Virus record (IMG/VR): IMGVR_UViG_3300042256_000013
Location: 1-64,000 of that record
Strand: one strand, 5' to 3'
DNA length: 64,000 nucleotides
Source: a virus
Lineage: Duplodnaviria > Heunggongvirae > Uroviricota > Caudoviricetes
Each line of letters starts with the position of its first letter. The stretch's first letter is position 1. Positions 18,153-18,610 of this stretch are shown here, one piece after another. The notes under the pieces are model-generated. The model had not been told where the DNA came from. It did not search any database and saw only the letters and a program-made list of their open reading frames with translations. The translations under genes were made by a program, and so were the position numbers.

Positions 18153-18185
18153 CTTGCAAACCTCATCCAGTATGATAATATAGCC
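18153..18185 (+). promoter_or_regulatory. sigma70-like promoter TTGCAA-N16-TAATAT with upstream A-tract
   Basis: cgaaaaaaagtccTTGCAAacctcatccagtatgaTAATATagcc; the downstream 230 nt is ORF-free and iteron-rich. Confidence 0.5.
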
Positions 18186-18279
18186 ATGTCAACACGAAAA
18201 GACAGCAACTGATTCTGCCTGGTACTAACCAGACGCGGAAGGGGAGCTAATGGAAAAATGACAGAAAAAACCATTTAGC

Positions 18280-18420
18280 CATCTAAACGTCTAGCCATCT
18301 AGATAGATAGCCTTCTAGCCTTTTATCCATCCAGAAGGATAGCAGTCTATACGTCTATACATCCAGCTATCTAAACATCCAGAAGTCTATACTTCTTCTG
18401 ACAGCAGACGGGATTATTCC
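18280..18420. repeat. iteron-like repeat array (about 6 x C(C/A)ATCYAGA, 3 x GTCTATAC) plus hairpin GACGGGATTATTCCGTC
   Basis: ccatctaaacgtctagccatctagatagatagccttctagcc...ccatccagaaggatagcagtctatacgtctatacatccagctatctaaacatccagaagtctatac. Confidence 0.6.
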
Positions 18421-18610
18421 GTCCATCAAATACTAATACAGTACTGTTATTGTATCTGTACCTTTCATCTAAATTAAAAGTTAACAGTACTAACAATATA
18501 CTCACAATGATTCCATAAGAATATGTGCTAGTACTGTCGAAGTGCATCAAATGCTACTCAATACGCTTAGTACTCAATTTCCTAAGCAACGCAAGACAGG
18601 AGGAAAAACT

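Follow-up and report, generated by a model that had tools for sequence, protein, structure and literature searches.

A tandem array of candidate methionine-repressor operators near the end of a long terminal repeat in a Rak2-like jumbo phage

The stretch of DNA analysed here (the window; 64,000 nucleotides, positions 1 to 64,000 of IMG/VR record IMGVR_UViG_3300042256_000013, Caudoviricetes) belongs to a jumbo phage of the Rak2-like group. Between positions 18269 and 18396 it carries an uninterrupted run of in-phase 8-bp units that resemble the operator boxes of the host methionine repressor, MetJ. We favor, with a confidence only a little above even, the reading that this run is a tandem array of 16 candidate MetJ operator boxes, a super-operator that may act as a sink for the repressor, as a roadblock, or as both. 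Five observations underlie this reading: the match to the MetJ operator sequence, the phasing of the boxes, the conservation of their score under sequence divergence, the position of the array, and the occurrence of similar arrays in unrelated phages that have direct terminal repeats. A sequence-only reading of the same region had described a promoter firing into an iteron-like array free of open reading frames (ORFs), and had proposed either an origin of replication or a site of protein titration. The latter option matches the explanation put forward here for the array of candidate boxes, and the iteron unit has to be redefined as an 8-bp period.

Boxes were scored with the published MetJ information matrix (Augustus & Spicer 2011, PMC3228920 Table 3), in which the consensus box, AGACGTCT, is worth 12.58 bits. 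The array totals 101.0 bits. All 16 boxes score positively, each with at least 2.9 bits and with a mean of 6.3, and the 8-mers flanking the array score -16 to -27 bits. The next best run in the window comprises two boxes and 12.3 bits, dinucleotide shuffles of the array do not exceed 23.4 bits, and shuffles of the whole window do not exceed 20.3 bits and three boxes. When 7.5 kb of E. coli K-12 sequence was scored for calibration, only the known operators of metJ/metB (four boxes, 31.2 bits) and metF (four boxes, 24.9 bits) were found. Box quality is thus 6.3 bits here against 6.2 to 7.8 bits in the E. coli operators, and the number of boxes is fourfold. Tandem Repeats Finder reports periods of 8, 16 and 32 over positions 18271-18389. 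The array is heterogeneous, with 14 distinct boxes among the 16, and a T-to-A step occurs at 12 of its 15 box junctions. The three GTCTATAC motifs that the sequence-only reading had listed are present. The motif C(C/A)ATCYAGA, of which it had counted about six copies, occurs in exact form only twice (at 18295 and 18327) and is not significant across the window. TrpR operators also present CTAG at 8-bp spacing, flanked as A-CTAG-T; a TrpR-type operator was rejected, since CTAG is flanked here as T-CTAG-A/C and is missing altogether from many boxes.

The array is conserved in relatives of this phage; a lack of such conservation would have counted, for the sequence-only reading, as a refutation. 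Homologous runs of metboxes are found in the jumbo genera Mimasvirus, Eneladusvirus and Asteriusvirus: Kaldavass and XbC2 carry 13+2 boxes, CBB and GAP32 12+2, BF 3+9+2, Yen9-03 9+2, vB_Ec-M-J 14 and A4 7+5+3. The array is also more conserved than its surroundings (90% identity, against 82% in the flanks). Random substitution at 26% of its positions reduces the score to -5 +/- 17 bits; the BF array, which is 74% identical, still scores about 105 bits. The phage arrays therefore diverge in sequence and yet stay metbox-like in score.

Similar arrays, ranging from 5 to 28 boxes, recur outside the jumbo phages. T5-like phages of Vibrio and Aeromonas contain 15 (Pontus), 8 (PVo5), 5 (VF16) and 28 boxes (AhSzq-1, 221 bits), and the T7-like phages PGT2 and phiKT contain nine each. 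Vibrio phage D164 (OZ196264) has two long metbox-like arrays, at positions 2471-2606 and 4079-4286 of the locus; the "hypothetical protein" coding sequences annotated over them (VPHD164_0053, _0058 and _0059) are probably spurious calls. Metagenomic T5-like contigs carry near-consensus arrays within 100-250 bp of clusters of DnaA boxes, and two further array-bearing metagenomic contigs could not be assigned to known phages. The 142 boxes pooled from phages mirror the chromosomal matrix, with A at position 1 in 91%, C4 in 90%, T6 in 93%, C7 in 87% and T8 in 79%, and 97 of 131 junctions have the T-to-A step. None of these boxes contains a base nearly never seen in chromosomal boxes, a property for which the scoring threshold partly selects. 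No metbox run is present in positions 1-1000 of T7 or 9100-10600 of T5, and a BLAST search of 72,556 plasmids and 5,426 complete E. coli genomes returned no array of this kind.

A second common feature of the arrays is their location in or next to direct terminal repeats. By homology, the left end of a long direct terminal repeat is predicted to fall at the 19040/19041 boundary, so that the array in the window would lie 644-771 bp inside it: CBB, XbC2 and BF have records that all start at the base homologous to this boundary, and the right-hand repeat junction of CBB shows the same boundary. The 22,456-bp repeat of CBB was inferred from double read depth and pulsed-field gels (PMC5259590), and the 17,581-bp direct terminal repeat of XbC2 was called by PhageTerm (PMC11273794). 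The annotation of vB_Ec-M-J places the homologous array inside "Direct Terminal Repeats". In PGT2 the array occurs only at 38-109 and 42464-42535, within the terminal repeat of about 260 bp at both genome ends. In VF16, PhageTerm defines a left terminal repeat of 1-7427, and the array (6991-7030) occupies its untranslated end, stopping about 400 bp short of the inner boundary of the repeat. It is flanked by DnaA boxes on one side and DRD-type repeats on the other, at a site homologous to the injection-stop region of T5 described by Davison. Two other repeated sequences lie near the inferred terminus in the window. The sequence GCGGAAGGGG occurs exactly twice in the 64 kb, on the same strand (18235-18244 and 19043-19052), 25 nt before the array and 3 nt beyond the inferred terminus. 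Kaldavass and CBB have conserved both copies, and the sequence could be a terminase or processing signal. A perfect tandem array of (AGTACTGGAT) x 11.7 occupies 19058-19174, 17 bp outside the inferred repeat boundary, and is absent from the homologous site in Kaldavass and CBB, which marks it as a recent expansion in this phage.

The distribution of MetJ agrees in large part with that of the arrays. MetJ homologues are confined to Enterobacterales, Pasteurellales, Vibrionales, Aeromonadales and Alteromonadales, whose operators are recovered by the same matrix. The phages that bear arrays infect Escherichia, Salmonella, Klebsiella, Erwinia, Pectobacterium, Cronobacter, Serratia, Yersinia, Vibrio and Aeromonas, hosts that fall in three of the MetJ orders, with XbC2 of Xanthomonas as the exception. 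Erwinia, Pectobacterium, Cronobacter, Serratia, Yersinia and Escherichia, which relatives of the window phage infect, all belong to MetJ-bearing orders. XaC1, a Xanthomonas relative from another genus, has kept the neighboring hairpin element and promoter and lacks the array. A phage-encoded MetJ homologue was considered and rejected: tblastn of E. coli MetJ against the window gave a best E value of 0.33. In IMG/VR, heterogeneous uninterrupted runs, defined by at least five distinct boxes, make up 11 of the 22 stretches found with the true matrix and 1 of the 41 found with column-permuted matrices (Fisher p = 1e-5); heterogeneity is what sets the true matrix apart from its permuted controls.

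Several results weigh against a MetJ operator. XbC2, isolated on a host outside the MetJ orders, retains its array, and is a close relative of an Erwinia phage. Counted without regard to heterogeneity, the 22 IMG/VR stretches matching the true pattern are not clearly more than the 18, 11 and 12 obtained with three column-permuted matrices, and a loose four-box pattern yields at least 120 stretches in bacterial genomes of taxa that lack MetJ. The metbox matrix carries little information. The base composition of the boxes is not identical to that of the chromosomal ones, since C stands at position 3 in 51% of phage boxes and in 10% of chromosomal boxes. The array overlaps no promoter and controls no gene of methionine or S-adenosylmethionine (SAM) synthesis, the genes downstream of its region encoding RCC1-like and lectin-like proteins, and in the literature searched no paper was found that links MetJ boxes to phage genomes or terminal repeats. 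T5-type phages degrade host DNA early in infection, which makes titration doubtful in the T5 family and as a universal role. Finally, the phage arrays are alike by BLAST and may therefore stem from few transfers rather than from many independent events.

Of the loose-pattern matches listed in MetJ-less taxa (among them Streptomyces, Gemmatimonadales and Anaerolineae), almost all are perfect repeats of a single 8-mer, for example (AGCCGTCC)n, and because the loose-pattern scan is swamped by such simple repeats it is uninformative on host range. Since 8-bp tandem repeats are common, a match to the matrix by itself is weak evidence. In some metagenome-assembled genomes the same simple array, such as (AGCCGTCC)n or (AGCCATCC AGCCATCT)n, is spread over several contigs, frequently at their ends or in inverted pairs, for example in an Anaerolineae, a Gemmatimonadales and a Schleiferiaceae bin; these arrays look like a dispersed repeat family.

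Taking the evidence on both sides together, we consider that MetJ probably binds the array. In a SAM-replete host, dimers of MetJ-SAM, one per box, would polymerize cooperatively over 128 bp and form a repressor filament three to four times longer than those on the four-box metJ/metB and metF operators. Two consequences can be envisaged. In trans, each genome would carry two arrays, replication would make the phage boxes outnumber the chromosomal ones, and these boxes would soak up MetJ and so derepress the synthesis of methionine and SAM. In cis, the filament would separate the divergent early promoters from the terminus or packaging cut site, 0.65 kb away, as a roadblock or insulator that depends on SAM. 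The location of the array in early-entering, doubled, non-coding DNA suits both roles. If MetJ binds, titration is the consequence to which we incline, at somewhat less than even confidence; a cis roadblock or architectural role is slightly less probable than that, and what is left goes to other roles. The geometry from promoter to array is inconsistent among the phages, which argues against a universal roadblock. Both the binding and the choice between its consequences are inferred.

The alternative that survives best, and which we nevertheless regard as unlikely, is that a phage-encoded protein, or a host protein other than MetJ, uses the array as a cis-acting site, and that the likeness to metboxes is coincidental. 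Such a site might serve the processing of terminal repeats, packaging, the entry of DNA (as in the injection-stop region of T5) or a centromere-like organization of the genome. The invariable location of the arrays in or next to direct terminal repeats would be explained by functions of this kind, whether at 644-771 bp from the end as in the window, at 38-109 bp as in PGT2, or at about 400 bp beside DnaA boxes as in VF16, and GCGGAAGGGG flanks both the array and the terminus. The asymmetric unit AGCC-NTCT, in which C3 reaches 51% and G6 only 6%, would suit a directional binder, and arrays of 7-10-bp repeats are known targets of ribbon-helix-helix proteins from plasmids and phages. The asymmetry is not peculiar to the phages, however, since E. 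coli operators read on the other strand show the same one good half-site per box. By tblastx, moreover, the array is the only similarity among the window, the whole PGT2 genome, the T5-like early regions and the D164 end; no gene is common to the first three, and no ORF adjoins the array in any family. The lack of a shared gene makes a common phage-encoded binder unlikely and favors a host factor. A random 8-mer unit would match the average box score in some phase with a probability of about 2% (0.27% x 8 phases), and the variation among boxes is confined to what the MetJ matrix tolerates.

The array is preceded by a plus-strand promoter, P2 (Table 1), and an improbable alternative is that P2 produces the functional unit, a stable non-coding RNA in which the repeated 8-nt motifs would act at the RNA level, for instance by sequestering an RNA-binding protein or a small RNA. 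P2 appears, from its sequence, to be a strong and conserved host-type (sigma-70-type) promoter. The TTGCAA-N16-TAATAT elements and A-tract that the sequence-only reading had proposed are present, and across seven phages of three genera the hexamers and the A/T tract are invariant and the spacer is variable, which is the signature of a real promoter; a generic promoter scanner had skipped P2 because it scores only 8/12. The upstream tract, AAATTTATTTTTTCGAAAAAAA, fits the UP-element consensus. Transcription is predicted to start near 18186-18188, so that the array would begin about 83 nt downstream of the start. The region 18153-18430 contains no plus-strand ORF of 30 amino acids or more, as the sequence-only reading had also stated, and a non-coding P2 transcript is plausible; a search for transcriptomes of this phage group returned none. 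The leader ahead of the array (18186-18268) is nearly invariant across the three genera. In an alignment of eight sequences from these genera, RNAalifold predicts two hairpins with compensatory changes at 8 of 19 pairs, which separate Mimasvirus and Eneladusvirus from Asteriusvirus, and with an invariant U-G pair that is compatible with the plus-strand RNA only; a structured non-coding leader RNA is supported by the compensatory changes. The leader also contains a Shine-Dalgarno-like GGGGAG followed by a mini-ORF, ATG GAA AAA TGA (18250-18261), whose length ranges from 3 to 14 codons among relatives. These properties of the promoter and leader, together with a fold z-score of -3.1 over 245 nt, are what an RNA function has in its favor. 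Against it, the minus strand folds about equally (z -2.4), as expected because the boxes are near-palindromic, and no Rfam family matches: a covariance scan with Rfam 15 at gathering thresholds returned tRNAs only, and a permissive scan of 17300-19450 returned only generic hairpin-type matches far below threshold. The T5-like arrays, in addition, are oriented oppositely relative to the neighboring early genes, and the PGT2 array, 38-109 bp from the DNA end, has no evident promoter. Because orientation and promoter context differ in this way in the T5-like and T7-like phages, a role of the repeats at the RNA level is unlikely.

An origin of replication, with the repeats as iterons for a phage initiator and activation by P2 transcription, had been one of the two proposals of the sequence-only reading and is in our judgment very improbable. 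Direct repeats, an adjacent promoter and an A/T-rich tract do lie together in a 2.1-kb gap between divergent gene blocks, and in T7 promoter-associated secondary origins are located near the left end. The layout nonetheless fails to resemble an origin: the units are 8 bp long and contiguous, unlike iterons of about 20 bp (17-22 bp) with a helical spacing, no Pfam domain is recognized in the flanking ORFs, an initiator is not evident, a single isolated DnaA-type 9-mer at 18703 takes the place of a cluster, and the A/T tract is accounted for as the UP element. GC skew is uninformative as an origin signal: it follows the gene strand, with sign changes near 18 kb and near 27-28 kb, exactly where the strand changes. 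A T7-like phage carries the same array within its terminal repeat, where an origin would not be expected. Just as improbable is a neutral, slippage-generated variable-number tandem repeat without function, which has in its favor that tandem repeats of 8 bp, whatever their unit, are common in contigs of viruses and bacteria, and against it the heterogeneity of the array, the conservation of its position and phase across three genera, its excess of identity over the flanks, and the preservation of its matrix score under divergence.

Compared with chromosomal MetJ operators, the candidate super-operator shares contiguous 8-bp boxes that fit the same matrix, the T-to-A junctions, one good TCT half-site per box and, with the metF operator, the string GTCTAAACG. 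A usual MetJ operator has two to five boxes. The phage array differs in its 16 boxes, against four in each E. coli operator scored, in its place near +83 of P2 without promoter overlap or control of a methionine or SAM gene, in its C-rich box position 3, and in its location in a terminal repeat. The nearest structural parallel is repeat region 3 of the T5 injection-stop sequence (Davison, bioRxiv 10.1101/866236), which is likewise an untranslated, repeat-dense block in a long direct terminal repeat and collects DnaA boxes. In the T5-like Vibrio and Aeromonas phages the metbox array lies between DnaA boxes and DRD-type repeats, where T5 has palindromes; T5 itself has no metbox run, and the jumbo array differs in lying near the outer (left) end of the repeat rather than the inner end and in having no DnaA boxes with it. 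The left end of T7 shows the same order of a terminus, non-coding short repeats, an outward (leftward) E. coli promoter, A0, and then the inward promoters A1-A3. Nearly all genes point away from that end, as do 520 of 554 ORFs in CBB (PMC5259590). The T7 repeats are unrelated in sequence and contain no metbox run, and the T7 terminal repeat measures 160 bp against about 18-22 kb here.

Titration of a regulator by non-coding DNA has precedents in the E. coli datA locus for DnaA and in multicopy Fur boxes for Fur. Like these, the array is a cluster of high-affinity-type sites without a regulated gene that could lower the free pool of a regulator; it differs in being viral and amplified by replication, in having a metabolic repressor as its candidate target, and in that titration here is putative. 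With origin iterons it shares direct repeats in non-coding DNA beside a promoter and an A/T-rich tract, and it differs from them in an 8-bp unit without spacing, the absence of an initiator gene, its terminal-repeat location and its recurrence in unrelated phages.

Table 1. Features in and around the candidate MetJ operator array, in window coordinates.
Feature	Position	Strand	Description	Basis or remark
Promoter P1	17947..17975	+	TTGCAT 17947-17952, 17-nt spacer, CATAAT 17970-17975	Read from sequence; reads into hairpin element
Conserved long hairpin element	17981..18100	+	GGGTGGCAAG ... CTTGCCACCC, CCAAAATTCA loop motif	Fold z-score -3.8
Divergent sigma-70-type promoter	18100..18129	-	TTGACA 18129-18124, 18-nt spacer, TACTAT 18105-18100	Scanner 10/12
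Promoter P2	18128..18181	+	UP element 18128-18149; -35 TTGCAA 18154-18159; 16-nt spacer; -10 TAATAT 18176-18181; extended -10 TGaTAATAT 18173-18181 (TG at 18173-18174)	
P2 leader	18186..18268	+	Hairpin 1 18187-18204, hairpin 2 18213-18240	RNAalifold
16 contiguous in-phase 8-bp MetJ-operator-like boxes	18269..18396	.	AACCATTT AGCCATCT AAACGTCT AGCCATCT AGATAGAT AGCCTTCT AGCCTTTT ATCCATCC AGAAGGAT AGCAGTCT ATACGTCT ATACATCC AGCTATCT AAACATCC AGAAGTCT ATACTTCT	
Hairpin GACGGGATTATTCCGTC	18407..18423	.	GACGG-N7-CCGTC, no T-run after	Lineage-specific
Inferred left terminus of direct terminal repeat	19023..19052	.	GACTTCAGGAACAGATA / TAGCGGAAGGGG, boundary 19040/19041	Homology

The array and P2 are contained in an ORF-poor gap of 2.1 kb (17304-19445) with a minus-strand gene block on one side and a plus-strand operon, beginning at 19446, on the other. 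P2 is directed toward the left terminus. The divergent minus-strand promoter, which has invariant hexamers and a variable spacer in seven phages, faces the early genes of the terminal repeat. P1 is kept in the Mimasvirus relatives, and E. coli phage vB_Ec-M-J has TTGACT-N17-TATAAT at the same place. The long hairpin element downstream of P1 is conserved in 10 sequences with three compensatory pairs and is present in all jumbo relatives, XaC1 included. A second copy lies at about 15196-15330, and a promoter-like site precedes each copy. In the Eneladusvirus phages BF and Yen9-03 the loop of the element contains an inserted Fur-box-like sequence, AATGATTCTCATT. The short hairpin beyond the array, GACGGGATTATTCCGTC, is present as the sequence-only reading had described it, but its conservation is limited to the closest relatives: it is kept in Kaldavass and XbC2 and absent from CBB, GAP32 and BF.

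No conserved ORF is found downstream of the array as far as 19445. Coding potential in this segment was considered and rejected, since matches fall in several frames and on both strands, so that the similarity there is one of nucleotide conservation only. A link of P2 to methionine or SAM genes was likewise rejected on account of the RCC1-like and lectin-like character of the downstream operon. This operon (19446-26647) comprises eight genes and encodes proteins with RCC1-like repeats and concanavalin-A-like lectins. It is situated just beyond the terminal repeat; most genes of these phages occupy the other strand, and the products of the operon are probably virion fibre or "hair" proteins.

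The region of the window is 82-88% identical to Erwinia phage Kaldavass and Xanthomonas phage XbC2, and its remoter relatives are CBB, GAP32, BF, fHe-Yen9-03/04 and the PBECO4-type coliphages. The window contains many small ORFs and five tRNA genes, clustered on the minus strand at 60134-61934 (Ala-TGC, two Met-CAT, Lys-CTT and Cys-GCA). It is also exceptionally rich in the palindrome AGTACT, with 279 copies against 18.4 expected and a shuffle maximum of 29. The density of this site is 4.4 per kb over the window and is highest in the gap 17304-19445, at 15.9 per kb; the segment 18103-18439, which spans P2, the leader and the array, has zero copies. AGTACT often occurs as CAGTACTG beside promoter-like hexamers, and CBB and vB_Ec-M-J are equally rich in it, a pattern suggestive of a site used throughout the genome by a phage factor or for a modification.

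Sites resembling those of other host regulators are found in the terminal repeats as well. In the injection-stop region of T5 (AY587007, 9468-9637), the units named "direct repeat C / palindrome E-J" differ from the 19-mer GATAATGATAATCATTATC by 3-5 mismatches and so resemble Fur boxes, and a similar likeness is noted at positions 8354-8378 of the VF16 locus. Fur-like sites, DnaA boxes and metbox arrays together suggest that the non-coding DNA of terminal repeats collects host-regulator sites. In its widest form, which we advance tentatively and hold to be rather less probable than the reading of the single array, the proposal is that MetJ super-operators of 5-28 boxes reside in the terminal repeats of at least three unrelated virulent families: the Rak2-like jumbo myoviruses, the T5-like Demerecviridae and one T7-like genus. 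There they might couple early infection, DNA entry or packaging to the SAM status of the host, or serve as replicating decoys that strip the repressor from its operators, within a wider stocking of DnaA, Fur-like and MetJ boxes.

The novel aspect of the arrangement would be a repressor operator that viruses have co-opted, greatly lengthened and detached from its regulon. SAM is already relevant to phage infection through restriction, BREX and phage SAM-degrading enzymes. A practical consequence concerns annotation, in that several "hypothetical protein" calls over such arrays, as in D164, are probably spurious. If the reading is correct, it would give a concrete function to conserved and so far unexplained repeat blocks in the terminal repeats of several phage groups, such as the region of T5-like Vibrio and Aeromonas phages that is homologous to the long-debated T5 injection-stop signal, and would connect phage infection with methionine and SAM physiology. 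Should MetJ bind such arrays, lytic phages would exploit a metabolic repressor of their host through non-coding DNA alone, a viral strategy built on operator DNA and not on a protein.

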